Shown: piece by piece, positions 3,395 through 39,800 of the stretch
Position numbering within the stretch: the stretch's first letter is position 1
How the letters are laid out: each line of letters opens with the position of its first letter
DNA from: a virus
Virus record (IMG/VR): IMGVR_UViG_3300013101_001415
Reading direction: 5' to 3' (one strand)
Length of the DNA stretch: 64,000 nt
Notes under the pieces: generated by a model
What the model was told of the DNA's origin: nothing
The model's input: only the letters and a program-made list of their open reading frames with translations
Database searches by the model: none
Made by a program: the position numbers and the translations under genes

Positions 3395-3585
3395 ATCCAT
3401 ATATTTGGAAAACCACTTGTAGAATTTGTGGTGGTAAAGGTATGGCTACATCAAGTGATATGGCTAACGGTTATTTTGAAGGCGGAGTAGCACATAAAAA
3501 CCCAGACATATGTAGACAAAGGTTAGAACAAAAATCAATTGATTTAAAAAAGAGAGAAGAAAATTTAAATCAAATAGAAAAATAA
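3391..3585 (+). CDS. small Cys-containing protein
   Basis: CRICGG..C pattern; ATGA overlap with upstream. Confidence 0.4.
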   Translation: MNPYIWKTTCRICGGKGMATSSDMANGYFEGGVAHKNPDICRQRLEQKSIDLKKREENLNQIEK

Positions 3586-11677: not shown

Positions 11678-11992
11678 ATGGATAAAAATTATATAAATAA
11701 ATATTTAACAGAGTTAATGTCAATCATTCCTAATAAAGACACTAAAGTTTCTAGTAAAAGAAAAGATATGGAAATTTTAAGAGCTGCTATTATTGCTGAA
11801 TATGATGCAATAAATTTATATGAACAGATGTCTGAAGCAGCAGTTGATAAAGATGTTAAACAAGTATTATTAAATGTAGCAAATGAAGAAAAAGAACATA
11901 TTGGCGAGTTTGAATATTTATTAGAAAAATTAGATATTGAACATGAACCGCATGAAGACAAAGGCGAAGAAGAAGTTAAAAAGGAATTATAA
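11678..11992 (+). CDS. ferritin-like four-helix-bundle protein (diiron-type ExxH motif)
   Basis: AEYDAINLYEQM and ANEEKEHIGEF motifs resemble rubrerythrin/ferritin-like metal ligands; low certainty. Confidence 0.4.
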   Translation: MDKNYINKYLTELMSIIPNKDTKVSSKRKDMEILRAAIIAEYDAINLYEQMSEAAVDKDVKQVLLNVANEEKEHIGEFEYLLEKLDIEHEPHEDKGEEEVKKEL

Positions 11993-12318
11993 TGGCTATA
12001 TGCTTACACTGTCAAAAAGAATATTATAAATGGGAAAATGATAAAGGAACTATGTTCCAAACATTCTGCTCAGAAGAGTGCGTAAAAAAACATACTATAG
12101 CACTCTTGAATCAAGATTGGCCAAGAGAACCAGCTTTAAAATATAAAGTTCCAGTTGGAGAAATAGCTTGTCCTCATTGTGGAGCTGTGCAACATGGTGT
12201 TTTAACTCCAATATGTGGTGGTTGTGATAGATCATATTGGTCAATGAAAGAGTGCGATGAAAAGAATAATCCACATTTTTATGAACAAGGAGAATCAAGT
12301 GAAACAAACAGAGATTGA
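11992..12318 (+). CDS. Zn-finger protein
   Basis: CLHCQ, CSEEC, CPHCG, CGGC pairs. Confidence 0.45.
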   Translation: MAICLHCQKEYYKWENDKGTMFQTFCSEECVKKHTIALLNQDWPREPALKYKVPVGEIACPHCGAVQHGVLTPICGGCDRSYWSMKECDEKNNPHFYEQGESSETNRD

Positions 12319-12517
12319 GAATAACTTTAAATATCATGCACCAACACCAAAACAAGTTGGAATATATGGACAATTAAGAAATAATGGAAAAGATTTAGTA
12401 GAGTATATAAATGCTGTATGCCCAGATAGTAGAGAGAAATCTATTGCTATTACTAAAATTGAAGAAGCTATTATGTGGGCTAATGCATCAATTGCAAGAG
12501 ATGATCAGTGGCTATAA
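12299..12517 (+). CDS. hypothetical protein (probable GTG start after AGGAG)
   Basis: ORF track frame 12257..12517; AACAAGGAGAATCAAGTG context supports GTG start at 12299. Confidence 0.4.
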   Translation: MKQTEIENNFKYHAPTPKQVGIYGQLRNNGKDLVEYINAVCPDSREKSIAITKIEEAIMWANASIARDDQWL

Positions 12518-12780
12518 AAGTAGTCCATTGTGAGAAACATGATTATGATATTTATATTGGTAGAGGTTCTAAATGGGGAAATCCTTTTATAATAGGAAAA
12601 GATGGAAATAGAACTGAAGTAATAAATAAATATAAAGATTATATATTAAATAATAAAAAATTATTAAGTTGCATCTCTGAATTAAAAAATAAAACCCTTG
12701 GATGTTATTGCAAACCAAAACCATGTCACGGAGATGTATTAATTCAAATCATTGAAAATAAAATAATACTTACAGTATAA
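12508..12780 (+). CDS. DUF4326-family protein
   Basis: YIGRGSKWGNPF ... LGCYCKPKPCHGDVL pattern characteristic of DUF4326. Confidence 0.6.
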   Translation: MAIKVVHCEKHDYDIYIGRGSKWGNPFIIGKDGNRTEVINKYKDYILNNKKLLSCISELKNKTLGCYCKPKPCHGDVLIQIIENKIILTV

Positions 12781-12793
12781 AGGGAATTACATA

Positions 12794-13330
12794 ATGGGTA
12801 AGAGAATATTTCCGGAAATTATAAAAAGTCAAAAATGGGAATCATTAGAAAAATTTTTTATAGGTATAGACCCAAGTTTAACAGGTAATGCTGTTGTTAT
12901 AATTAATGATTCTAAAGAAATAGTTAAAGAACATTTAGTAAGTACTGATAAAGAATGTTATATAGATGGATATCAAAGGGTAAATGATATATTTGAACAA
13001 TTAAAATATATATCAAGTGTGGTTAGGTTAGAAAAAGTATATGTTGAAGGTCTTTCTTATATGTCAGCGAGTCCAACATTATTTGAAAGATGTGGTTTAT
13101 TGTATATGATAGTAGGTAATTTATTAGAAAATGATATTAATTATTCAATTGTACCACCAACAACATTAAAAAAATGGCATACAACAGACGGACATGCTGA
13201 TAAAAAAATGATGATGCGTGTTGCTAAGTGTAAATATGATATAGACTTTGAAGATGATAATATATGTGACGCATATTGTTTAGCTTTATTAGCATTAGAA
13301 GATTATAAAAATAATGTTAAGAGGAATTAA
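12794..13330 (+). CDS. RuvC-like Holliday junction resolvase
   Basis: FIGIDPSLTGNAVV N-terminal catalytic Asp motif; YVEG; C-terminal DICDAYCLAL. Confidence 0.7.
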   Translation: MGKRIFPEIIKSQKWESLEKFFIGIDPSLTGNAVVIINDSKEIVKEHLVSTDKECYIDGYQRVNDIFEQLKYISSVVRLEKVYVEGLSYMSASPTLFERCGLLYMIVGNLLENDINYSIVPPTTLKKWHTTDGHADKKMMMRVAKCKYDIDFEDDNICDAYCLALLALEDYKNNVKRN

Positions 13331-13332
13331 AT

Positions 13333-13743
13333 ATGATTATATTAGATAATTACCTATATGGTTTGCAAGAAGGTAAGATTTGGGATAAGGTTAAAAAAGT
13401 TTGGAGAGACCATAAAGGAAAAATAATTGCAGGTGCGGCGGTAGCTGCAGGCGGTATAGCCTATGCTAATAGAAGTAAGGGTAATAAAAATGTATCGAAC
13501 ACAAGTTCTAGACAACAAAAGCCATCTAGAAGATCTCAGCTTATAGCAAGACAAAAAAACAAACTAAGGCAAAAAGGCGCTATAGCAAAAAGTAAATGTC
13601 CAGGCCAAAAAGCTTATTTTAGTATGGGTAAATTAGTGGGATGTGGTGAAGCTGGTAAATTAGCTGCTAACAAGATGAAAGATAGGTTTCTTGGTAAAAC
13701 ACCTAAATCTAAACAAAATATAAAAGACAACGAGGATTTTTAA
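13333..13743 (+). CDS. Lys/Ala-rich protein, paralog A (conserved N-terminal module plus Gly/Ala zipper)
   Basis: N-terminus LDNYLYGLQEGKIWDKVKKVWRDHKGKI nearly identical to ORF at 41329; basic C-terminus. Confidence 0.5.
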   Translation: MIILDNYLYGLQEGKIWDKVKKVWRDHKGKIIAGAAVAAGGIAYANRSKGNKNVSNTSSRQQKPSRRSQLIARQKNKLRQKGAIAKSKCPGQKAYFSMGKLVGCGEAGKLAANKMKDRFLGKTPKSKQNIKDNEDF

Positions 13744-13754
13744 AAGGTTAACCC

Positions 13755-14252
13755 ATGAAAAAAATAAGATTTGTAATACATAACCATAAAGCGAGACGTG
13801 CTGGATATCATCAAGATTTGCGATTTGAAGATCCTAATAAAAGCAATCACTGGCACTCATTTGCAGTTCCTAAAACAGTTCCTTTACATTCAGGTAAAAG
13901 AGTTTTAGCAATTAAGACTCATATTCATTCTGAAAAAGAAGCTTTGTTTAAAGGAGATATTCCTGCTGGAGAATATGGCGGTGGTAATATTGAATTATTT
14001 GACCAAGGTGTTGCTACATTAAATAAATTTACACCAGCTCATATTACTATAACTATGCAAGGAAGAAAAGTAAAAGGATTATATCATCTAATTTCACTTG
14101 GAAATGTTGATACAGGAAAATTCAAACAACAACAATATCTATTATTCAAATCCAAAGTTTCAATCACACATCCTTTAAGAATTACTAAGCCAGAAGAAAC
14201 ATTCTATCAAAAACAAATAGCAAAATTTAATAAAATTTTAAAGAAAAAATAA
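13755..14252 (+). CDS. LigD-type 3'-phosphoesterase (PE) domain protein
   Basis: RFVIHNHKARRAGYHQDLRFE, SFAVPK, GDIPAGEYGGGNIELFDQG, GRKVKGLYHLI match the LigD N-terminal phosphoesterase domain. Confidence 0.8.
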   Translation: MKKIRFVIHNHKARRAGYHQDLRFEDPNKSNHWHSFAVPKTVPLHSGKRVLAIKTHIHSEKEALFKGDIPAGEYGGGNIELFDQGVATLNKFTPAHITITMQGRKVKGLYHLISLGNVDTGKFKQQQYLLFKSKVSITHPLRITKPEETFYQKQIAKFNKILKKK

Positions 14253-14261
14253 CAAATTGGA

Positions 14262-14296
14262 AACAATCATAATACAAGATTGTTTCCAGTTTTTCC
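14262..14296 (+). terminator. rho-independent terminator-like hairpin
   Basis: GGAAACAATC-loop-GATTGTTTCC followed by AGTTTTT. Confidence 0.55.
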
Positions 14297-14353
14297 GTCT
14301 AGATGGAAACTAAAATTAAAAAATTTACCTTATTTTAGAAACAATTTCTAAAA

Positions 14354-14370
14354 TTTAGAACAAATTAATA
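14354..14370 (+). promoter_or_regulatory. promoter-like motif TTTAGAACAAATTAATA (variant of a motif repeated at 22378 and 32361)
   Basis: Shared TTTAGAACAAA core about 45-60 bp upstream of a start codon in three long intergenic gaps. Confidence 0.35.
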
Positions 14371-14414: not shown

Positions 14415-16139
14415 ATGAAATCAGTTATATTGGAAGGTAGTTCTCTTGAAGTTGCAACAAGTAGATATCTCATGAAGGGAGAAAATTGGGATATGTGTGC
14501 AAATCGAGTAGCAGATACAATGGCAGCATCAGAAACAAATAGAGTTAAATATAGAGAAGAATTCCATGAGATGATTGGTACTATGGATTTTTTACCTGGA
14601 GGTCGTATATTAAGAAATTCTGGTAGAACAAGAGGATCATTGTTTAATTGTTATCATTTACCAATTAATGATAATATAGAAGATATAGGTCAATTCTTAA
14701 AAGAGAGTTTAATACTATGGTCAGAGGGTGGAGGGGTAGGAGCAAATTTTTCCAAACTTAGACCAAAGGGAGATGTAATATTAGGTAAAGGTGGAACATC
14801 ATCTGGATTAGTTTCGTTTGTAGAAGCTGCTGATGCTGTTGCTGCAACTATTGAAAGTGGCGGCGCCAGACGAGCAGCTGGTTTAGTTCATGTTGATGTA
14901 AATCATCCAGAAGTTATGGATTTTATTGATGCAAAATTAGTTCATGGTAAAATATCACATTTTAATATATCCGTAGCAATTAATGATGAATTCATACAAG
15001 CAGTTGAAACTGATTCAGACTGGACATTTAAATTTAATCAAAAAGAATATGGTACAATAAAAGCAAAATCAATATGGGATAAGATAGTTGATAATATGAT
15101 TAAGTCTGCAGAACCAGGTTTAATTAATTGGACTAACTTTCAAAAAAATAATTCATGGTATTATGATCCAGTTTTAGGCACGAACCCTTGTGGGGAAACT
15201 TGTCTATCAGCTCGTGATGTATGTGATCTTGGATCTTTAGTATTACCAAATTTTATTACAGGTAATATTAATACAAATTGGAAAAAATTAGAAAAAACTA
15301 TTTTTCTAGCTGTTAGGTTTCTTGATGATGTAATTCAAAGTAATAAATATGTTATGAAAGAAATTGAAAATAAAGCTAATACATCAAGAAGAATTGGTAT
15401 TGGAGTATTAGGAGTAGCTGAATATTTATTTGCTAAAAAAGCAAGATATGGATCTGAAAAATCTATTCAAGAATTAGAAAGATTAATGCAATTTATTAGA
15501 AATAAATGCTATGAAGCTTCAGTTGAACTTGCAAGAGAAAAAGGATCATTTCCTGCATTTGATCCTGTCTTATATGGTAAGTCGTCTTTTATTAGAAAAT
15601 TACCAGCATCTATTAGAATGGACATTAAAAAATATGGAATAAGAAATGTAACATGTCAAGCAATAGCACCAACAGGTACAGTTAGTTTATTAACACCATA
15701 TACAGGATCTGCAGAACCATTATTTGCTAAAGCATATAAAAGAAAAGATAGAGTTAGTGAAAGAATATATGTTCACCCAATGTATGAAACTATGTTAAAA
15801 AATGAAGAAGAAATGCCTGATTGGTTTGTTGACACTTTTGATTTAAACCCACAAGATCATTTTAATATTCAAGCAGTAATACAAAGATATGTTGATAGTT
15901 CAGTATCAAAGACAATTAATTTACCAAAAGAAACTACAACAGAAGATTTAAGTCAATTATTATTAGAAAATATAACTGACTTAAAAGGGGTTACTGTATA
16001 TAGGGATGGTTGTAGAGGTGAACAACCATTAAATAAAATTACTAAAGAACAAGCTATAGAACACATTAGAAATAACATAGTTAAGAGATCACTTGAAACA
16101 GGAGATGTTCAATGTTCTAGCGGAAAGTGTGATATATGA
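14415..16139 (+). CDS. nrdJ: class II (adenosylcobalamin-dependent) ribonucleotide reductase, monomeric type
   Basis: Active-site NPCGETCL motif (class II signature); 574 aa; C-terminal Cys pair. Confidence 0.75.
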   Translation: MKSVILEGSSLEVATSRYLMKGENWDMCANRVADTMAASETNRVKYREEFHEMIGTMDFLPGGRILRNSGRTRGSLFNCYHLPINDNIEDIGQFLKESLILWSEGGGVGANFSKLRPKGDVILGKGGTSSGLVSFVEAADAVAATIESGGARRAAGLVHVDVNHPEVMDFIDAKLVHGKISHFNISVAINDEFIQAVETDSDWTFKFNQKEYGTIKAKSIWDKIVDNMIKSAEPGLINWTNFQKNNSWYYDPVLGTNPCGETCLSARDVCDLGSLVLPNFITGNINTNWKKLEKTIFLAVRFLDDVIQSNKYVMKEIENKANTSRRIGIGVLGVAEYLFAKKARYGSEKSIQELERLMQFIRNKCYEASVELAREKGSFPAFDPVLYGKSSFIRKLPASIRMDIKKYGIRNVTCQAIAPTGTVSLLTPYTGSAEPLFAKAYKRKDRVSERIYVHPMYETMLKNEEEMPDWFVDTFDLNPQDHFNIQAVIQRYVDSSVSKTINLPKETTTEDLSQLLLENITDLKGVTVYRDGCRGEQPLNKITKEQAIEHIRNNIVKRSLETGDVQCSSGKCDI

Positions 16140-17521
16140 TTTTAATATGCGGACCTTGTGTTATTGAAAATTTATCAAAATTACGAAAAGATGCAAAAGA
16201 AATAGTAGCAATTGTTAATAAGTATAACAACATTGATTTTTATTTTAAATCTTCTTGTATTAAAGATAATAGAACACGAATTCAAAACTATTCTGGTCCA
16301 GGTTTTAAATCAGGAATAAAAAGTTTAATTAAAATCAAAGAGGAATTTCATTGTAAAATAACTACTGATTTTCATACAGTTGAACAAATAGAAACATATG
16401 CAAAATATGTAGATTTGATTCAAATTCCAGCATTTTTAGCAATGCAAACTTCTCTTGCAAAAGCTGCATCTAAAACTGGAAAACCTATTCATATTAAAAA
16501 ACCACAATGGTTATCTTCTGGTGATGTTAAAAAACCTGTATCAAAAATTAAAAATTTAAATAAAGATACTAAGGTTTTTATAACAGATAGAGGAACTACA
16601 TTTGGATATGATAATGTTGTAATGGATCCTCGACATATTAGACATATGAATGAAACAAGTAATTGTGATGCTGTATTAGTTGATATTACCCACCCACAAA
16701 ATCATTCAAAAATATATAATAGAAGTTATGCTTTTGATTTAGGAATGTCATCAATTGCATCAGGAGCGAATGGTTTGTTTATTGAATCAACAATTGATCC
16801 TATGAATGCTAGTTGTGATGCAGATTCTCAAATACCTGTTAAAGATTTATTAAAATATATTAAAGGTTTTATAAATTTATATAATTATATAAATAGAACT
16901 TATACAAGCAATATTTATGAAATAAAAAAATTTATAAAATCTCTAGATGAGTGGGATGTATATAATCCTATTACTATAAATGGAGAATTATTGATAGATG
17001 GTAATAGAAGAAAGATGGAAAATCAACATATAAGAATAAATGCAATTGCAAATAATATAAAACCAAATAGTTCATATTTAGATATGGGTTGTAATTCCGG
17101 TTTTATTATTAAAGAATTAATAGAATTAAAAAATATAAAAGCAACAGGTGTTGATATAGAAGATGATATAATAAAATTATGTAAGTTAATAAATAAAATT
17201 GAGAATTTAAATATAAACTTTATTAAACAAGATATAAAAAAATTTATTATAGAGTGTAGAAAAAATAATATAAAGTTTGATAATGTATCAATGTTATCTA
17301 TTGGAGATTTTAATGAAACAGTACTTTTATTAGATTTTCTTTTAAGTATAACAAAATATAATTTATTTTTAGAACCAACAAACCATGAAGGAATGTCAAT
17401 TTCTGAATCAAAAGAAAAAATAAAAAAATTATTCCCTAAAAAATATAATATTGAAATATTAACAATTACAGATTATCAAAATAGATTTTTATTGAAAGTA
17501 CAAAATGCTAAATACAAATGA
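16136..17521 (+). CDS. kdsA: KDO-8-phosphate synthase (KdsA) fused to a C-terminal class I SAM-dependent methyltransferase domain
   Basis: ICGPCVIEN, FKSSCIKDNRTRIQNYSGPG, IQIPAFLAMQTSL, KPIHIKKPQW, DRGTTFGYDNVVMD, VDITHP, GLFIESTIDP align along E. coli KdsA; C-terminal YLDMGCNSGFII (MTase motif I), GVDIEDD. Confidence 0.8.
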   Translation: MILICGPCVIENLSKLRKDAKEIVAIVNKYNNIDFYFKSSCIKDNRTRIQNYSGPGFKSGIKSLIKIKEEFHCKITTDFHTVEQIETYAKYVDLIQIPAFLAMQTSLAKAASKTGKPIHIKKPQWLSSGDVKKPVSKIKNLNKDTKVFITDRGTTFGYDNVVMDPRHIRHMNETSNCDAVLVDITHPQNHSKIYNRSYAFDLGMSSIASGANGLFIESTIDPMNASCDADSQIPVKDLLKYIKGFINLYNYINRTYTSNIYEIKKFIKSLDEWDVYNPITINGELLIDGNRRKMENQHIRINAIANNIKPNSSYLDMGCNSGFIIKELIELKNIKATGVDIEDDIIKLCKLINKIENLNINFIKQDIKKFIIECRKNNIKFDNVSMLSIGDFNETVLLLDFLLSITKYNLFLEPTNHEGMSISESKEKIKKLFPKKYNIEILTITDYQNRFLLKVQNAKYK

Positions 17522-18416
17522 AGTAAGAATAGAAACATGTACAATATGTAATTATTTTTGTATATTTTGTCCTCATTCCACAAAATTTGTTCGTAAAAAA
17601 GAAGAAATGTCGTTAGAAAGATTTTGTTTGATTGTTGATAAAATTAAAAAGGAATTACCTAACATAACCAATATTACAATTTCTGGTTTTGGTGAAGCAT
17701 TTGTAGACTGGCAAATATTAGAAAAAATAAAATATGCAAAAGAATGTGGATTTAAAATTCATATATTATCTAATGGTTATTATTTACCTTACCCAAGAGT
17801 AGATTTTTTAAATGAGGTGGGTGTTGAAGATATAAGAATTAGTTTACATTCAGTTTTATATAAACCATATCATATAATAACTAAAGCTCCTTTATACCAA
17901 TTTAGACAAGTGTTATGGAATATTGATTATATTATCAATGAAACAAATATAAATTTAATATTAACATTTGATATTATACCTGGAATTAATGATGACCAAA
18001 TTGATTTAATTAAAGAAAAATATGATGATTATGCAACAATTGAAATGTGGAAACCTCATAATTGGGTAGATGCTTTTAAATTTAGAAAAGGTGATATAGT
18101 AAAATCAACTTGCGGAAGACCTTGGAATAGTCCATATCAAATACAAGTTGATGGCACAGTTAATATGTGTTGTTTTGATTATAATGGAAAATTGTTATTA
18201 GGGAATTTTTTAAATCATACTATGGAAGATATATTTAATGATAAACCTTTTTTAGATTTAAAAAAACATCATGAGAATAATACATTAAATCAAACTAATT
18301 ATATATGTAAAAATTGCGATCAAAGAAAAGATCAAAATGATATTGTTATTTATAACAATAAATTTAAAAGTAAGGAAAGAATAAATAGGACTTCTACTAA
18401 TTATGAAAAAATCTAA
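17505..18416 (+). CDS. radical SAM enzyme with SPASM-like C-terminal Cys cluster
   Basis: CNYFCIFC (CxxxCxxC) near N-terminus; C-terminal CGRPW, CCFD, CKNCD cysteines. Confidence 0.7.
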   Translation: MLNTNEVRIETCTICNYFCIFCPHSTKFVRKKEEMSLERFCLIVDKIKKELPNITNITISGFGEAFVDWQILEKIKYAKECGFKIHILSNGYYLPYPRVDFLNEVGVEDIRISLHSVLYKPYHIITKAPLYQFRQVLWNIDYIINETNINLILTFDIIPGINDDQIDLIKEKYDDYATIEMWKPHNWVDAFKFRKGDIVKSTCGRPWNSPYQIQVDGTVNMCCFDYNGKLLLGNFLNHTMEDIFNDKPFLDLKKHHENNTLNQTNYICKNCDQRKDQNDIVIYNNKFKSKERINRTSTNYEKI

Positions 18417-19104
18417 TCAAAAAGTTGTTATTTTACATGGTAGTTTTAATTCTGGTAAAACAATAGTTTATAATTTATTTAAAAAAGAAAATAATTATAA
18501 ATGGATAGATATATCCCCAGATCATTTAAAAGATAATAAGGACGAAATAGAATATCAAATTGGTAAAAAATGGTTAAATAAAATAACACCTGATATTGAA
18601 TCATTAGAGATATTTAAAGGTAATTATTTTTTAAATTTGTTTAATTTGTTATTAAAAGAATTTCCTAATTATAATTTTGTTGTAAAACCAGGTGGGTTTG
18701 ACTGGGTTTTAAATAATAAGTTACCACCTAATATATTTTATAATATTTTTATTATTAGACATCCTAAAATTTGCTGGATGGTAAACACCACACATTTTTC
18801 AATAGATGAATTTATTAAAATGTATAAAAAAATATTAATTGGGGTATTTAAAGAAAAAAGTAATGTTATTAAAATTGAAGAGATTGGTAAAAATAAATTA
18901 ATGAACCAATTAATTAAACGAACTGATTTAAAACAAATTAAACCAATTACAAAATTTGATGAATTTTTATTAAAAAAAATTAATTTAGAAACAATTAATG
19001 ATGAATTAGAACAAATTGATGATAAATTAAAAGACTTAATAAAATATTTAGAGTATGATTTAGATACTATAGATATAAATTTAATATTAAAAAGGAATAC
19101 TTAA
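18403..19104 (+). CDS. P-loop kinase-like protein
   Basis: Walker A ILHGSFNSGKT at N-terminus. Confidence 0.5.
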   Translation: MKKSNQKVVILHGSFNSGKTIVYNLFKKENNYKWIDISPDHLKDNKDEIEYQIGKKWLNKITPDIESLEIFKGNYFLNLFNLLLKEFPNYNFVVKPGGFDWVLNNKLPPNIFYNIFIIRHPKICWMVNTTHFSIDEFIKMYKKILIGVFKEKSNVIKIEEIGKNKLMNQLIKRTDLKQIKPITKFDEFLLKKINLETINDELEQIDDKLKDLIKYLEYDLDTIDINLILKRNT

Positions 19105-19700
19105 TGAATTATTTTATTGACACAGCTGATCAGGATGAAATTGAAAAATGGAAAAATTTTGTTGATGGAGCAACTAGCAACCCATCATTATTAAATAAAT
19201 CTAAAACTAATGCAGATGAATTTTTTATTAAAAATAAACATAATTTTAATAAAATATTTATTCAAGTTAGATCTTTAAAAGAATTATATCACTATAACAC
19301 AAGCGATAAAATTATATTCAAAGTTCCATTGTTAATAACAAAAGATTTTAATGGATTTGATTTAATTAAAAAAATAAAAAATATGGGTTATAAAACTTGT
19401 GCAACTATTACTTATGATCTCTTCCAATTTGATTATGCTTGTGAAGTTGATAGTGACTATAGTATTGTTTTATGTGCTAAAAATAAAAATAAAGATTTTC
19501 TTATAGAATGTGTAAATCTAAAAGAAGAAAGAAAATATAATACTAAAATTATAGCAGCAAGTTTTAGATCTATAGTTGATATTAGAGATGCTGTAGAATT
19601 TGGTGCTGATTATGCTACTGTTCCTCCAAAATATATGGAAGGGTTGTTTTTTAATCAAGATGCAATTAATGATTTTAATGATTTTTATGGAATAAAATAA
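19104..19700 (+). CDS. fructose-6-phosphate aldolase / transaldolase-family (TalC/FSA-like) enzyme
   Basis: FIDTAD...GATSNPSLL N-terminal motif and Schiff-base Lys context IIFKVP. Confidence 0.65.
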   Translation: MNYFIDTADQDEIEKWKNFVDGATSNPSLLNKSKTNADEFFIKNKHNFNKIFIQVRSLKELYHYNTSDKIIFKVPLLITKDFNGFDLIKKIKNMGYKTCATITYDLFQFDYACEVDSDYSIVLCAKNKNKDFLIECVNLKEERKYNTKIIAASFRSIVDIRDAVEFGADYATVPPKYMEGLFFNQDAINDFNDFYGIK

Positions 19701-20446
19701 TGAGAACTGTAGCAGTTATTTCTGCAAGATTAAAGTCAACTAGATTCCCAAATAAAATTATCCACAAACTTAATGGAAAGAGAATAATAGAACATGTTAT
19801 TAATAACACATCTAAGTTAAATTTTATTGATGATATAATTATAGCAACAGACGATGAAGATTTTGGTATAAAAATAACAGATGAATTTGACCAGGTTAAA
19901 GGTTATTTTATAAGCGATGCATGTTGTGGGACTCATAGGACATATCAATATTTTAAATCAATAAATAAATATAAATATAAGTATTATGTTTCTATACCAT
20001 GTGATGAACCATTAATAAACCCAGAAGAGATAAATAAAACATTCTCAAATATAGATGAATTATTTAATAATGAAATTGTAACTTTCTATACAAAATTTTT
20101 TTGTATGGAGGATTTAACAAGTCCATTGTCTTGTAAAATAGTTACGTCAAATGAAAATTATATGGTTTATAATTCAAGAGCAGTAGTTCCTATTCTAAAG
20201 AATGGATCTTATTTACCTTTAGATGATTATAAAAAACATTTAGGAATTTTTATATTTCCTAGAAATGTATTTGAAGAACACGGTGAAAATTTATGGTGGG
20301 GTACAACAGATATTGAATCATTAGAGCAAAATAGATTCCTCCAAAGAAAAGTACTTATTAAATTATATGAAACTAAACATATAGGTTTTGGTATTGATGT
20401 TTATTCTCAAATAAAAAAAATGGAGGAAAGAATGAATTGTGTTTAA
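19700..20446 (+). CDS. kdsB: CMP-3-deoxy-ulosonate cytidylyltransferase (KdsB/NeuA family)
   Basis: VISARLKSTRFPNKI..LNGKRIIEHV, IIIATDDED, CGTHRT, IPCDEPLI, KHLGIFIFPR align with KdsB. Confidence 0.75.
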   Translation: MRTVAVISARLKSTRFPNKIIHKLNGKRIIEHVINNTSKLNFIDDIIIATDDEDFGIKITDEFDQVKGYFISDACCGTHRTYQYFKSINKYKYKYYVSIPCDEPLINPEEINKTFSNIDELFNNEIVTFYTKFFCMEDLTSPLSCKIVTSNENYMVYNSRAVVPILKNGSYLPLDDYKKHLGIFIFPRNVFEEHGENLWWGTTDIESLEQNRFLQRKVLIKLYETKHIGFGIDVYSQIKKMEERMNCV

Positions 20447-32301: not shown

Positions 32302-32309
32302 AATAAAAG

Positions 32310-32346
32310 GGTAGCTTATAGTAAATATAAGCTACCCTTTTTCCGT
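32310..32346 (+). terminator. rho-independent terminator
   Basis: GGGTAGCTTATA-GTAAA-TATAAGCTACCC followed by TTTTTCC. Confidence 0.7.
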
Positions 32347-33104: not shown

Positions 33105-35444
33105 ATGTTAAGATTATTAAATCCAAAAAGTTTTTGTAAAAATCTTAAACCAGTAACATCTATGATCACTACCACTAAATCTGGTGACTTTCATGAAGAA
33201 GGTTTGTTTAGTGAAGACATTTTTGGACCAGATGGTTCGCCAGATAGAAGAATTATATTCTCTTATTTTGAATTATATGGTTACGCTATTCATCCTGCTA
33301 TGTATAGAATATTATTACAAATAGATAGAAGAGTAGAAAAGTTTATTTCTACTGAAGAATCTTTTATTTTAGATAAAGATGGTATATTAGAGATAAACAA
33401 TAAAGGTGTTACTGGGATGAAAGAGTTTATAAAATTATTTCCTAGTATAAATTGGAGAGGTGGAACTGAATTAAGAAAAAAGCTTATTAAACTCATTAAA
33501 AAAGAAACTAAAAACAACACAATGTTTATTGATAAAATTATTGTAATTCCTCCAGATTTAAGACCTTCTATAAAAGGTGAAGATGGTAATAGGATGGATG
33601 ATCAATTAAATGATGTATATATTTCTGTTATGAGAAAGGCTTCTCAATTAAGATCTTCTGGTTCTGGTCCGTTATATGATTTATTAAATTATTCTATGCA
33701 ATTAGCAGTTATGGATCATGATAATTATATTAGATCAAAGATTGGTAAAAAGAAAGGTATTATTCGAGATCAAATGTTAGGAAAACGTATTGATTTTTCT
33801 GGTCGATCTGTTATAACACCTGATCCAAAAATAAAAATCAATGAAGTTGGATTACCACTAAGATTAGCTATTAGCTTATTTGAACCTTTTATTATGAACA
33901 GATTATTATATTCTGGTAAAGTTGATAAAGATGTTTTAGAAAAAGGTATCAAAGAATTTAATGGAATGGAACTTTCAACTGAATCTGTTAAAAGAGTAAT
34001 GAAAGGTATTAAAGAAGGAGATAAAATTCCAGAAAATCTTTATGAATTATTCTTTATACAAACAGAAGTTTCAATGATGGGTCGTGTTGTAGTAGTAAAA
34101 AGGGATCCAGTTTTACATACTCAAAGTTATTTAGCTTATTTTCCTGTCTTACATAGAGGCGATACAATGCTTATGTCTACTACTCAAGTTGGTGTTCATA
34201 ATGCAGATTTTGATGGCGATACAATGGCTGTATATCATCCATTAACAGATGAGGCTCAAGATGAAGCAAGAACAAGAATGATGAAACTAACTTCTGGAAC
34301 ATCATCTTCTGAGTTTATTTTTGGTTTATCAAAAGAAATATGGGCTGGGTTATATACTATTACAAAAGATAAAAAACCAACAGGGTCACCATTAGCAGTA
34401 TCTAATGAAGATATTGAAAATGCAACCGAACCGTATATAGCAGTTAAATATAGAGGTCAAAAAACAACAATGGGTAAAGCTATTGTTAATAGTTGCTTTC
34501 CAAAAGATATGGGTTATATGGAAGCACAAGCAACTAAAAAAACAATTAACTCAAAGATTGAACAGACTTATAATAAACATGGTGATGATATTATTAAAAT
34601 AGTTGTTGATAAATTAAAAGAAGTTGGATTTAAATGGGCTACCATCATGGCTCCATCTATGAGCTTAGATACTTTTGAATTACCAGCCTCGGTTTTAAAG
34701 ATTAAAGAAAAATTAAAAACAGCAGATCCAGAGGAAGCTCAAACTCTAATAGAGGAAGCTCAAAAAATATTAGAAAAGCATTTAGACAATACAGGATTTG
34801 GAGATCTTGCTAATTCAGGGTCTACTAAGGGATGGGGTCAACCAATGCAAATACTAGTTGCAAAAGGTGTTATCGCTGATCCTGACGGTAATGTTTTAGA
34901 TCCTATATCAGGGTCATTTGCTGATGGTTTATCTAATAGAGAATACTTTGATGCCTCTCAAGGAGCAAGAAAAGGTATTATTGATAGAGTTATTAATACA
35001 GCTGAAACAGGATATATGTCAAGAAAATTAGCTTATTTATTAAATACAGTAGAACTTGACCCTCGTATAAAAGATTGTAAAACAACAAAAACATTAAACA
35101 TAAAACTTAATGATGTTTTAATTAAAAGATTTACAGGAAGGTTTGTTATTAAAAACGGGAAATTGATGGAATTTGAAAGAGCTAAATTTAAAGTTGGTGA
35201 TATAGCTAGTATAAGAACTCCTATCTATTGTAAGTCTGAAAAAATATGTCATACTTGTTATGGTAAATTATTACAAAGACATCAAACTCCTTATATTGGA
35301 ATATTAGCTGCTCAACTTATTGGAGAAAGAGGCACGCAATTAATAATGAAAACTTTTCATACAGGTGGAGCAGTATCTTTAGTAAAACGTGATATGTTAG
35401 ATGATATTATTAATAATGATCCATTATCTGGATTGGAAAAATAA
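33105..35444 (+). CDS. multisubunit RNA polymerase beta-prime subunit, N-terminal and catalytic part (through bridge helix and trigger-loop start)
   Basis: GLFSEDIFGP (region A), VHNADFDGDTMAVYHP (universal Mg-binding motif), GARKGIIDRVINTAETGYMSRKL (bridge helix), CHTCYG...AAQLIGERGTQLIMKTFHTGG. Confidence 0.85.
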   Translation: MLRLLNPKSFCKNLKPVTSMITTTKSGDFHEEGLFSEDIFGPDGSPDRRIIFSYFELYGYAIHPAMYRILLQIDRRVEKFISTEESFILDKDGILEINNKGVTGMKEFIKLFPSINWRGGTELRKKLIKLIKKETKNNTMFIDKIIVIPPDLRPSIKGEDGNRMDDQLNDVYISVMRKASQLRSSGSGPLYDLLNYSMQLAVMDHDNYIRSKIGKKKGIIRDQMLGKRIDFSGRSVITPDPKIKINEVGLPLRLAISLFEPFIMNRLLYSGKVDKDVLEKGIKEFNGMELSTESVKRVMKGIKEGDKIPENLYELFFIQTEVSMMGRVVVVKRDPVLHTQSYLAYFPVLHRGDTMLMSTTQVGVHNADFDGDTMAVYHPLTDEAQDEARTRMMKLTSGTSSSEFIFGLSKEIWAGLYTITKDKKPTGSPLAVSNEDIENATEPYIAVKYRGQKTTMGKAIVNSCFPKDMGYMEAQATKKTINSKIEQTYNKHGDDIIKIVVDKLKEVGFKWATIMAPSMSLDTFELPASVLKIKEKLKTADPEEAQTLIEEAQKILEKHLDNTGFGDLANSGSTKGWGQPMQILVAKGVIADPDGNVLDPISGSFADGLSNREYFDASQGARKGIIDRVINTAETGYMSRKLAYLLNTVELDPRIKDCKTTKTLNIKLNDVLIKRFTGRFVIKNGKLMEFERAKFKVGDIASIRTPIYCKSEKICHTCYGKLLQRHQTPYIGILAAQLIGERGTQLIMKTFHTGGAVSLVKRDMLDDIINNDPLSGLEK

Positions 35445-36470: not shown

Positions 36471-36818
36471 ATGTATGAATATAAAGCAATGATATCAAGA
36501 GTTGTTGATGGTGATACCTTTGATGCAGAAGTTGATGTAGGATTTAGTATTACAATTAAACATAGGTTTAGATTAACAGAAATTGATACACCTGAAACAT
36601 GGAGACCAAAGACATCATCTGAAGCAGAACATGGGTTTAGATGTACTAATTTTGTTAAATCATTAATAGAATATAAAGATGTTATAATAAAATCATCAAA
36701 ACTTGGAATATATGGAAGATATGAAGCTTCATTAACTTTACCAGATGGTAATGATTTAGCAACAATATTAAAAGAAAATGGATTTGAAAAATTAGATAGC
36801 TATCCAGAGGATAAATAA
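36471..36818 (+). CDS. staphylococcal (thermo)nuclease-like nuclease
   Basis: RVVDGDTFDAEV...RFRLTEIDTPET and GRYEASLTLPDGNDLATILKENGF match SNase fold motifs. Confidence 0.7.
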   Translation: MYEYKAMISRVVDGDTFDAEVDVGFSITIKHRFRLTEIDTPETWRPKTSSEAEHGFRCTNFVKSLIEYKDVIIKSSKLGIYGRYEASLTLPDGNDLATILKENGFEKLDSYPEDK

Positions 36819-39800
36819 TGATTCAATTTAAAGCGCTTAAACCATTTACACATGTTGTTAATGGGATACGATTTCCACAAGATTCCAAGAATCCTTTCAT
36901 TATACTTTACTTTAGTGAAAATTCAACATTAGTTGATGATTATTCTAAATTAAATTTAAAAAGAGTGGATGTTAAAAAAGTTATCGTTCCTAAAACAAAA
37001 ATTCCATATAGCTTTATGTCACCAGAACTTAAAAAAACATATAAGGCGTATGGTTTGGTAGCTTCTAGTTCTACACAATCAATACCTCAAAAACAAAATC
37101 TTATGTATGACTTAACACCTTTTTTAAATATATTAGATAATGCATATAAATTAAAAAATTATAGAGCTCGTGGTGGTTTTATATTAAAAAATATAATTGA
37201 TAAAATATTTAGTTCATTTCCTAATAATTATCAAAAGATTTTTATGTATAGTACCAATGCAACTAAAGGTATGAATAAATATATTGATAGAAAAATATTT
37301 CCATTTGTTATAGAATTAAAGAAAAATAAATTATACTATGATCATTTGATACTAAATACCATTGGGGATAATTCATCTAGATATCGACTATTAATGAAAG
37401 ATAGATCTATTAAATTCAATAGAATAAATTTATTTCTTAAAAATATTAAAATTATTGATGATGATGAAGAACTTGAAAATAAAATAAATACTGCGACCAA
37501 TACAGTAATTAAAAAAATTAAAGATGATATAACACCTTCTAACAAAAATAAATTTAAACAATCAATACAAAAGTTTTTTGAGAAAAATCCAAATACTTTA
37601 GAAAAAGCTCATAATAATGATATAACTAATAATGACGCTAAAGATATTGCAACAGCATCTGTATTATATAGAACAACTGGCGATATGGGAAAATCTCGTA
37701 AAACGACTTCAAAAATTCCAGAAAATAAAAAAACTGCTGCTCTAAAAGTTATTGATAAAAAATATGCTGATGAATTATTACAACCTAAAAAAACAGAAAC
37801 CACAGCAGAAGATTTAGTTATACAATTATCAAATGTTTCTAATGCAGTTGGTAATAAATCACCTGAACATATTTTTGAAAAAAGAAAAATAGACTTTGAA
37901 ACTAATTTAAAGAAAGATGTTGTGAATTCTTTTAAGGTTTTAGAAACAAAAAATATTCCGTTAAAGTTTAAAACTATTAATATTGTTAAAAAACCTATAA
38001 GAAGAGGGGATTTATCTCCATCAAATATTAGTACTATAAAAATTACCATGGTTGATAAATTTAAAAGAGAACATGAAATTTTATTAGATGTTCCTAATAT
38101 AGCAGATGATGGAACATTTCAAATTAATGGTAAGAAAAAATGTCTTATTAATCAATTGGTTTTATGTCCAATAACATTCCCTAAAAAATATGATAGTAAG
38201 TTTGAAAGTAGTTATTCTACATTCCATATTTGGAGTAAAAGAACAAAAAGAGAAGAATATTTAGAAGCATACATTGGATCATATAAAGTTCCTTTATTGG
38301 TTCTATTATCCTTTAGTTTTGGTTTTAAAGAGACACTGAAATTATATGATATTAGGTATAAGATAACAAACGAGAAACCTGATAAAGAGGTTAAATGGAC
38401 CGTTAAAGTTGACGATAACCAATGGATTTTATTTGAAAATATCAATACAAAATTAAAAGAAGAATTAATTCAATCATTAGTTCATTCCAACATTAGTTCA
38501 TATAATTTAAAAGCAGAGTTTTTAACTAAACAATATTTTAATGATTTGATTATTAAAATAGCGGGTCGTATTAATTCAACATTTTTAATACAATCAAATT
38601 TAGAGAATATTGTGGATCCTGTAGCTAAACAAGTTTTAATAAATAAACAATTACCATCTGAATTACATTTGATTATGAAATATATGTCATCTAAAGCAGT
38701 TGAAGGATTTGTACAAAAAAGAAATGATATATCAAATCAAAGAATAAGAAATTCAGAGATTCTTGTTCATCTAGCACAAAAGCAAATTTTAGCAGCTCAC
38801 ACAGAATATAAAGAACAAGTATTATCTGGCAATAAAAAAGCTATATTTTCTATATCTCAAACTAAAGTATTAAGCGATTTTATAAATTCAGAAATTGTAG
38901 CTGATATGGAGTATGCTAATCCAATAGAAGAAATGGCTACTAAAACAAGAGTTTCTCCTGTTGGTAAAGCAATTGGAGGTATACCTGATAAACAAGCTAT
39001 ACAAAATGAAGGTCGTAATGTTCATGATTCTATGTTTGGAAATATTGATACACTTGATACACCTGAAGGTGAAAATGTTGGTATTGTACAGCAATTAACT
39101 GTTGATGCTTTCATAACATCAGCGAGAGGTATTATTCAAACTAAAGATAAAAAAGAAGGTGAAAATTCTGGACTTTTATCTACAACAGCTGCTCAAATAC
39201 CATTTGTTGAAAATAACGATGGTAATAGGGTTATGTTTGGATGTAGTCAAATGAGACAAGCTGTACCATTAAGAAACCCAGAAATACCAATGATTCAATC
39301 AGGATATGAATCAATTTTAACAAGTGTCTTGTCTGATGATTTTATCAAAAAATCTCCTTGTAATGGAAAGATTACTAGGGTAACAAAAGATGATATTTCT
39401 ATTAAATGTAGTACTGGTGGTAATAAAGTTATATCAATAACACCAGTTCATTTAAGATCAGGATCTGGTAAGGATACATTAAGTGTATTTAAACCTACTG
39501 TAAAGGTTGGTCAAGTTGTTAAATATAAAAGTATAATAGCTGAAGGATCATGTATTACTGGTGGATCTATTGCTCTTGGAAGAAGTATGTGTGTTGCTTT
39601 AATGCCTTATAAAGGTTTTAACTTTGAGGATGGAATTGTTATATCTGAAAGAATAGTAAAAGAAGGAATTCTAAATTCATTACATGGTATAGTTGAAGAA
39701 GTTGAAATAGCAAAAGATGACAGAGTTGTATTTATAAATAAATTAGGAGCTGAGACTATAAAAGGAGAACCATTATTAAGAAAGAGTATTGGAGAGATTG

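Follow-up and report, generated by a model that had tools for sequence, protein, structure and literature searches.

This locus raises the question of what a 3'-phosphoesterase (PE) of the LigD type, encoded as a protein of its own, does for a phage. To our knowledge, work on enzymes of this type has been confined to their part in bacterial and archaeal end-joining. The window analysed here (the whole 64,000-nucleotide stretch of IMG/VR virus record IMGVR_UViG_3300013101_001415) comes from an uncultivated AT-rich jumbo phage, and a first-pass annotation, made from the sequence alone, had described in it a 165-aa protein matching the LigD PE domain motif by motif and ending a transcription unit.

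Gene, family and fold

13755..14252, + strand: stand-alone LigD-type 3'-phosphoesterase (PE) gene, 165 aa (ORF, Pfam, PDB matches, structure model)

The open reading frame is real and exactly where it had been placed, running from an ATG at 13755 to a stop ending at 14252, and it begins 11 nt past the end of the preceding ORF. Assignment of its product to the LigD 3'-phosphoesterase family is secure, being borne out by profile matches, sequence matches to solved structures, and fold. In a search of Pfam LigD_N (PF13298), which had been proposed as a check, the protein scores 65 bits (E=8e-18) against a gathering cutoff of 31.1 and covers profile positions 1-106 of 107. [quoted passage not shown] The score against the NCBIfam equivalog_domain model TIGR02777 is 78.5 bits, under the cutoff of 144, and the protein is therefore a divergent family member rather than a LigD PE domain equivalog. 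No PHROGs family matches it.

An AlphaFold model built with 34 homologs (pLDDT 89.3, pTM 0.76) has beta-barrel strands over aa 3-133, a short helix at aa 60-63 after the second phosphate-binding His, and a basic amphipathic C-terminal helix at aa 145-164 that is specific to the subclade. The best seven Foldseek matches of this model in the PDB are all PE structures, with TM 0.90-0.91 to the archaeal enzymes, and the next match has E=0.058; the modelled strands and the Foldseek matches agree on the eight-stranded beta-barrel of the LigD PE superfamily.

Active site

Six residues of Pseudomonas LigD are required for both PE activities, of which His42, His48 and Asp50 are metal ligands, Arg52 and His84 are phosphate ligands, and Tyr88 holds a phosphate-bound water, the proposed nucleophile of the 3'-phosphomonoesterase step (PMC3300020, PMC3082917). 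Arg14, Asp15 and Glu21 of the N-peptide, together with Gln40 and Glu82, are monoesterase-specific, and it is chiefly for this step that the N-peptide, Gln40, Glu82 and the Tyr are needed (PMC3300020, PMC3082917). Alanine at any of the five metal- or phosphate-binding residues leaves almost no activity (PMC3082917), Tyr-to-Ala mutants are left with ∼18–23% of diesterase activity and with 3'-phosphate product remaining (PMC3300020, PMC3082917), and Lys66 influences polynucleotide diesterase activity (PMC3300020).

The phage protein retains the metal ligands as H11, H19 and D21, the phosphate ligands as R23 and H58, and Lys66 as K40 (H42/H48/D50/R52/H84/K66 = H11/H19/D21/R23/H58/K40). When all 198 retrieved proteins were aligned to the clade profile, these six residues were invariant across 89 clade-like and 99 canonical sequences, an invariance that argues for a working active site. 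The loss of metal-binding His, Asp or Arg residues, which had been named as the observation that would count against the assignment, is therefore not seen, as the His/His/Asp and Arg/His residues are all present and do not vary within the clade.

The motif-by-motif match holds for these five core residues and not for those around them. The sixth essential residue, a Tyr in the solved enzymes (Pae Tyr88, Mba Tyr82, Cko Tyr55), is Glu62 in the phage protein in a gap-free alignment, where the clade reads HSEKEALF and the solved PEs read EDHPLAYADF, EDHDLSYIDF and EDHPLDYADF. Gln40 and Glu82 are both His (His9 and His56), which together with S59 and E62 make up the variant positions. The first metal His is residue 11, with just ten residues before it, and the N-peptide with Arg14, Asp15 and Glu21 is therefore absent. 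Because the replaced and missing elements are those tied to 3'-phosphatase activity (PMC3300020, PMC3082917), processing of 3'-phosphates is the least secure part of the original description.

This substitution pattern belongs to the clade as a whole, with clade-like and canonical PEs parting cleanly at all four positions. Position 9 is H/V/M in the clade against Q/H in canonical members, position 56 is H/T/K/N against E/P, and position 59 is S/T against P, whilst position 62 is most often Glu in the clade (61 E, 12 Q and 6 D, also S, N or G) and never Tyr or Trp, against 78 Tyr and 21 Trp in the 99 canonical sequences. The first metal His is at a median of residue 11 and lies no more than 15 residues from the N-terminus in 90% of the clade. 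Glu and Gln exchange at position 62 between relatives that are 75–80% identical, which suggests a hydrogen-bonding role for this residue and not that of an obligate acid/base or metal ligand. Two other candidate markers of the clade were rejected: a 2-residue 'AG' insertion between the metal His residues, which many canonical Tyr-containing PEs also carry, and loss of the Pae Arg76 equivalent (Val50), a position that is variable in canonical members too.

Clade size and novelty

An exhaustive profile search of 1.84 billion representatives returned 6,952 PE-family proteins at E<=1e-3 and 43 at E<=1e-30. With the clade defined as clusters at 50% identity having E<=1e-30, its size is taken to be ∼43 clusters among ∼7,000 PE-family representatives. 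Of the 51 homologs that a word-indexed search returned, almost all are short stand-alone proteins of metagenomic origin, and contigs as long as 269,986 bp carry the identical protein. In 50,697 deposited phage genomes, tblastn gave no homolog with either the phage PE or a canonical PE as query, a megablast of 10 kb against the same number of deposited phage records found no related DNA, and the BFVD viral structure library gave one marginal match only.

Six clade members (P0042, P0044, P0046, P0050, P0055 and P0059) have C-terminal tails or linkers with a G-M-x-S-R-[VIN]-P-P motif, followed by an acidic stretch and 'LPW/LQW'. This motif, which may be a protein-docking peptide, is not present in the phage PE at 13755-14252.

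In a survey of 224 jumbo phages, the enzymes given for 3'-end healing are of the HAD, 2H, cRec, calcineurin-like and HD types, and LigD PE is not listed (PMC7824862). Membership of the family is in itself not new, since in the JGI pipeline these proteins already carry the label 'DNA ligase D-like (predicted 3'-phosphoesterase)'. What appears to be undescribed is the clade, in terms of the signature of its active site, its place among the core genes of a jumbo-phage lineage, and the linkage and fusion that connect it with ribonucleotide reductase (RNR).

Phage background and gene neighborhood

The window is tightly packed, with a GC content of 27% and ∼89 genes, nearly all on the + strand. It encodes a type II topoisomerase, Mre11/Rad50-like and RecA/UvsX-like proteins, a clamp-loader-like ATPase and a Dda-like helicase, as well as subunits of an RNA polymerase:

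33105-35444: RNA polymerase beta'-like subunit, 779 aa
36471-36818: small SNase-like ORF between the beta'- and beta-like subunits
36818-40909: RNA polymerase beta-like subunit, 1363 aa

The beta-like subunit shares only 22–25% identity with its counterparts in known jumbo phages (S6, phiR1-37), and the lineage is therefore deeply divergent. Scans of the window for tRNAs and Rfam families returned nothing.

Gene context was compared over ∼19 distinct contigs with clade members. Their PE identity goes as low as 39%, and 15 of the contigs are IMG/VR viral genomes, which reach 248 kb. On these contigs PE holds one slot of a conserved backbone, which runs FEN/RNase H-like exonuclease, gp13-like, RuvC-like, PE, (rubrerythrin-like), RNR, o142, RecA, KH protein, o187 and PD-(D/E)XK nuclease. 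In the window, the genes surrounding PE include the following:

11678..11992, + strand: rubrerythrin/EncFtn-like ferritin-fold protein, 104 aa (Pfam, synteny)
12794..13330, + strand: RuvC-like protein, 178 aa (52–63% identical to the L008 and L007 orthologs; synteny)
13333..13743, + strand: Lys-rich ORF, 136 aa, with an 11-nt gap to PE, found in the closest relatives only (weak, sub-threshold HEPN_AbiV match)
14415..16139, + strand: RNR, 574 aa, the conserved downstream neighbor of PE (Pfam Ribonuc_red_lgC E=3e-100)

The L008 ortholog of the RuvC-like protein has a weak Pfam RuvC match, and a 177-aa ORF upstream of PE in L009, considered as a further ortholog, was rejected as not homologous. 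The PE frame overlaps the RuvC-like gene in L007, L016 and L022 (-14, -11 and -4 nt, respectively). The rubrerythrin-like gene (Rbr) lies directly downstream of PE or is fused to it in most relatives and has moved upstream in this phage; in 4 genomes PE and Rbr share a 4-nt overlap, giving a total of 7 genomes with frame overlaps to one or other neighbor.

The RNR gene is downstream of PE at every locus with enough DNA to be informative, the exception being the most distant, L028. Fusions are found among the clade representatives as well, joining PE to RNR in P0075 (713 aa) and P0066, and apparently also to rubrerythrin in P0059 and P0071 and in one case each to DUF5661 and an M48 peptidase. 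At the junction in P0075 the Met of RNR itself is kept, and as this fusion occurs on two contigs from two different samples it is real, an assembly artefact having been rejected on the same grounds.

Neither Ku, an ATP-dependent ligase nor a LigD-type polymerase was found among the Pfam-annotated genes of the window and the 10 kb upstream, and the combination of Ku with a ligase or AEP polymerase, fused or in one operon, that is indicative of NHEJ was not seen in that region.

Several other observations concern the surroundings of RNR. In a related phage the RNR gene (L009:2288-5503, 1071 aa) contains an intein with an HNH endonuclease. Directly after RNR, the window at 16136-20446 encodes a KDO8P-synthase/methyltransferase fusion, a radical SAM/SPASM protein, a transaldolase-like protein and a CTP-transferase; this cassette is missing from an otherwise collinear NCBI contig (L002) and looks like a strain-variable insertion for sugar biosynthesis or modification. 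A Q_salvage gene adjoins the RNR gene in relatives (L009:1431-2270) and a PTPS/QueD-like gene is present in the window (56431-56859), a hint of 7-deazaguanine (queuosine-type) metabolism, possibly DNA modification, in this lineage.

Transcription unit

The PE and RNR genes are separated by 162 nt, in a window that has only 11 gaps of >=60 nt among its ∼89 genes. Two elements occupy this gap:

14254..14294, + strand: intrinsic-terminator-like hairpin (folding energy against shuffles)
14335..14369, + strand: candidate phage-specific promoter upstream of RNR, with TTAGAAAC at 14335-14342 and TTAGAACAAATTAATA at 14355-14369, 20 nt apart

The hairpin is formed by GGAAACAATC (14259-14268) and GATTGTTTCC (14278-14287) around a 9-nt loop, followed by AG and TTTTT (14290-14294), and its GC-containing core of 10 bp is lengthened by A/U pairing to 15 bp (14254-14292). 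With a dG of -17.3 kcal/mol (z=-4.98), a fold matched by 0/200 shuffles, and the run of five T, it confirms the terminator that had been described after PE. A generic terminator scan missed it because of the 9-nt loop. An equivalent hairpin with an altered stem sequence (dG -19.4, z=-4.65) follows PE in the 84%-identical relative L012, and none is found after PE in L013.

The promoter-like motif that had also been described after PE is a recurrent, conserved phage motif, TTAGAACAAA, and is not sigma-70-like. No sigma-70-type promoter was found in the 162-nt gap, and sigma-70-like matches are not enriched in the region (29 vs 33.2 in shuffles), so a promoter of that type was rejected in favor of the TTAGAACAAA motif. 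Its TAGAA and GAACAAA blocks do not vary among 5 diverged phages, and GAACAAA lies 18–59 nt upstream of the RNR start in 6 phages. The gap contains TAGAACAAA at 14356-14364, one of 8 exact copies in the window, all on the + (coding) strand, where 2.5 would be expected over both strands. Half of these (14356, 22383, 32367 and 41287) are located in the rare long intergenic gaps, 16–59 nt before start codons, with those at 14356 and 32367 just past strong hairpin/U-run terminators; the remaining copies are at 3524, 19007, 20546 and 22230, and the recurrent form is T(T)TAGAACAAA(W)TA. Judged on its sequence and placement, the TTAGAACAAA/TAGAACAAA motif is plausibly a phage-specific promoter and a candidate for recognition by the multisubunit RNA polymerase of the phage, a reading that would fit with the phage having an RNA polymerase of its own. 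Very strong, perfect intergenic hairpins with 16-bp stems are also present at 32305-32341, followed by a U-run and TAGAACAAA, and at 47936-47976, and these are likely terminators at transcription-unit boundaries.

With a terminator downstream of it and a conserved promoter-like element upstream of RNR, PE closes one transcription unit and RNR opens the next, so the earlier statement that PE ends its unit stands for this phage.

Proposed function

From the observed family, fold, residue conservation, synteny, fusions and terminator, we infer, with moderate confidence as to activity, substrate and biological role, that PE is an active, CkoPE-type, Mn-dependent 3'-phosphodiesterase serving phage replication and recombination, with a weak or altered 3'-phosphatase activity. 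The His-His-Asp triad (H11, H19, D21) would hold manganese, and Arg23 and His58 would grip the scissile phosphate at the 3' end of a nucleic acid. As the N-peptide is absent and the equivalents of Gln40, Glu82 and Tyr88 are replaced, the enzyme is predicted to be mainly a 3'-phosphodiesterase, which may for example trim 3'-terminal ribonucleosides, probably on single-stranded or flapped ends. Its 3'-phosphatase activity would be weak or proceed by a changed mechanism, in which Glu/Gln62 may place the water normally held by Tyr. PE belongs to the core of a replication, recombination and nucleotide module in this AT-rich jumbo-phage lineage, and likely cleans ribonucleotide-tailed or blocked 3' ends that arise during replication or recombination of phage DNA. 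The loss of Tyr together with Gln40 and Glu82 could reflect a different substrate and not just a weaker phosphatase, and the fusions of PE to RNR and to rubrerythrin point towards nucleotide metabolism as much as DNA repair.

In a tentative alternative, to which we assign a low probability, the enzymes of the clade have turned from polynucleotide ends to small molecules or a substrate linked to RNR, such as 3'-phosphorylated or 2',3'-cyclic nucleotides, or serve the quality of the ribonucleotide/deoxyribonucleotide pool, and act physically together with RNR and the ferritin-like protein. The remodelled pocket, in which His9/His56/Ser59/Glu62 have replaced Gln/Glu/Pro/Tyr, could, equally tentatively, accommodate a second metal or a 3'-phosphoester substrate other than a polynucleotide. 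The near-constant position of RNR downstream of PE, the recurrent fusions (P0075 on two independent contigs with P0066 as a second example, and P0059 and P0071 with rubrerythrin) and the 4-nt PE/Rbr overlap hint at such a partnership, and every peripheral residue that faces the substrate and is known to tune the canonical activity has been replaced. However, the promoter-like motif lies between PE and RNR both here and in five relatives, and the terminator does so here and in L012, and the two genes are therefore in separate transcription units. Fusion of adjacent genes can, moreover, be neutral, K40, equivalent to the Lys that influences polynucleotide diesterase activity, is still conserved, and we know of no member of the PE family that acts on mononucleotides. 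If true, such a partnership would link 3'-phosphoester hydrolysis to dNTP supply in jumbo-phage replication.

Slightly less probable still is a role in RNA end-healing, in which, after host ribonucleases have cut tRNA or mRNA, PE would clear the 3'-phosphates, cyclic phosphates or damaged 3' nucleosides and thereby feed an RNA ligase. The same phage encodes two genes that bear on this:

1229-1783: RNA 2'-phosphotransferase KptA/Tpt1 (phrog_5470 E=4e-69, PF01885)
L029:2048-2794, outside the window, ∼8 kb upstream of KptA: RNA-ligase-associated nucleotidyltransferase RlaP

KptA, which adjoins the Dda-like helicase gene (37-1227), and RlaP belong to an RNA-repair toolkit, of which no ligase was seen. 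Such toolkits are common in jumbo phages (PMC7824862), and the minimal CkoPE favors single-stranded substrates (PMC3258152). KptA and RlaP are, however, ∼12.5 kb and ∼20 kb from PE, respectively, and both are outside its conserved module; neither an RNA ligase nor a polynucleotide kinase was seen near PE, and the clade is without the determinants of 3'-phosphatase activity, the very step that an ATP-dependent RNA ligase needs.

Immediately upstream of the RuvC-like gene, 1.2–1.5 kb from PE, are two genes that could instead suggest counter-defence:

∼12299-12517: Acb2/Tad1 hairpin-domain gene, 72 aa, overlapping the next
12508-12780: DUF4326 gene

Acb2/Tad1 is a family of anti-CBASS/anti-Thoeris sponges, and in such company PE might destroy immune nucleotide signals of the host or repair damage done by defence nucleases. 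This is improbable, as the pair is kept in the closest relatives L012 and L013 and is not beside PE in the wider clade, yet PE keeps its slot there; a fixed position in a core module across 47–84% identity is unusual for an accessory anti-defence gene. PADLOC returned no matches for PE or its five upstream neighbors, and this negative result, together with the restriction of those neighbors to the nearest relatives, argues against an anti-defence island of Acb2/Tad1, DUF4326 and PE, which was rejected. The conserved synteny favors a role in replication and recombination over counter-defence.

That PE is an inactive fold kept as a nucleic-acid- or protein-binding module, as the lost Tyr and the sub-cutoff TIGR02777 score might suggest, is very improbable, given that none of the five residues at which alanine abolishes activity varies over ∼90 diverged sequences and that Tyr-to-Ala mutants stay partly active (PMC3082917).

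Comparison with known enzymes

The favored reading, an active 3'-phosphodiesterase, takes CkoPE (3P4H, 117 aa) as its model, an enzyme that is likewise stand-alone and minimised, without an N-peptide, and with its first metal His at residue 9, as compared with 11 in the phage PE. The two share the same beta-barrel (Foldseek TM 0.90, rmsd 2.2 A, 36% identity) and the same His-His-Asp/Arg/His core. CkoPE is a good Mn-dependent 3'-phosphodiesterase and a feeble 3'-phosphatase that prefers single strands (PMC3082917, PMC3258152), and, lacking the N-peptide, it leaves ∼90% of its product as 3'-phosphate (PMC3082917). By analogy, the phage PE may have a similar profile of good diesterase and feeble phosphatase activity. 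The phage enzyme differs, however, in having Glu62, His9 and His-Ile-His-Ser where CkoPE has retained Tyr55, a Gln ahead of its first His, and Glu-Asp-His-Pro, and in an extra C-terminal helix of 30 aa. The setting also differs, as the phage PE is in a replication module, whereas archaeal PE genes are reported not to be clustered with repair genes (PMC3082917).

MbaPE (3P43), also stand-alone, is the best match in both sequence and fold (TM 0.91, rmsd 2.0 A, 38% identity) but has an N-peptide, a vigorous 3'-phosphatase activity and Tyr82 (PMC3082917). PaePE (3N9B/2LJ6), the founding member of the family, prefers primer-template substrates (PMC3258152). Its core residues are equivalent to those of the phage PE, whilst Arg14/Asp15/Glu21, Gln40, Glu82 and Tyr88 are all missing or replaced in the latter; additionally, PaePE is a domain of a ligase-polymerase-PE fusion that acts with Ku in NHEJ, whereas the phage PE stands alone.

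The viral clade has kept the catalytic core of these enzymes with the residues that tune phosphatase against diesterase activity systematically replaced, and it offers a natural experiment on the roles of Tyr and Glu in PE catalysis. Its context of FEN, RuvC-like, RNR and RecA genes provides a setting in which the biological role of a stand-alone PE may be probed. Among phage enzymes that restore usable 3' ends, the 3'-phosphatase of phage T4 Pnkp is a possible functional analogue of PE, though unrelated to it in fold and chemistry, and its role would be the parallel for PE in RNA end-healing. The HAD, 2H, cRec, calcineurin-like and HD enzymes of other phages are possible functional analogues in restoring usable 3' ends, again with unrelated folds and chemistry (PMC7824862), and to this known phage repertoire of end-processing folds the LigD PE adds another.
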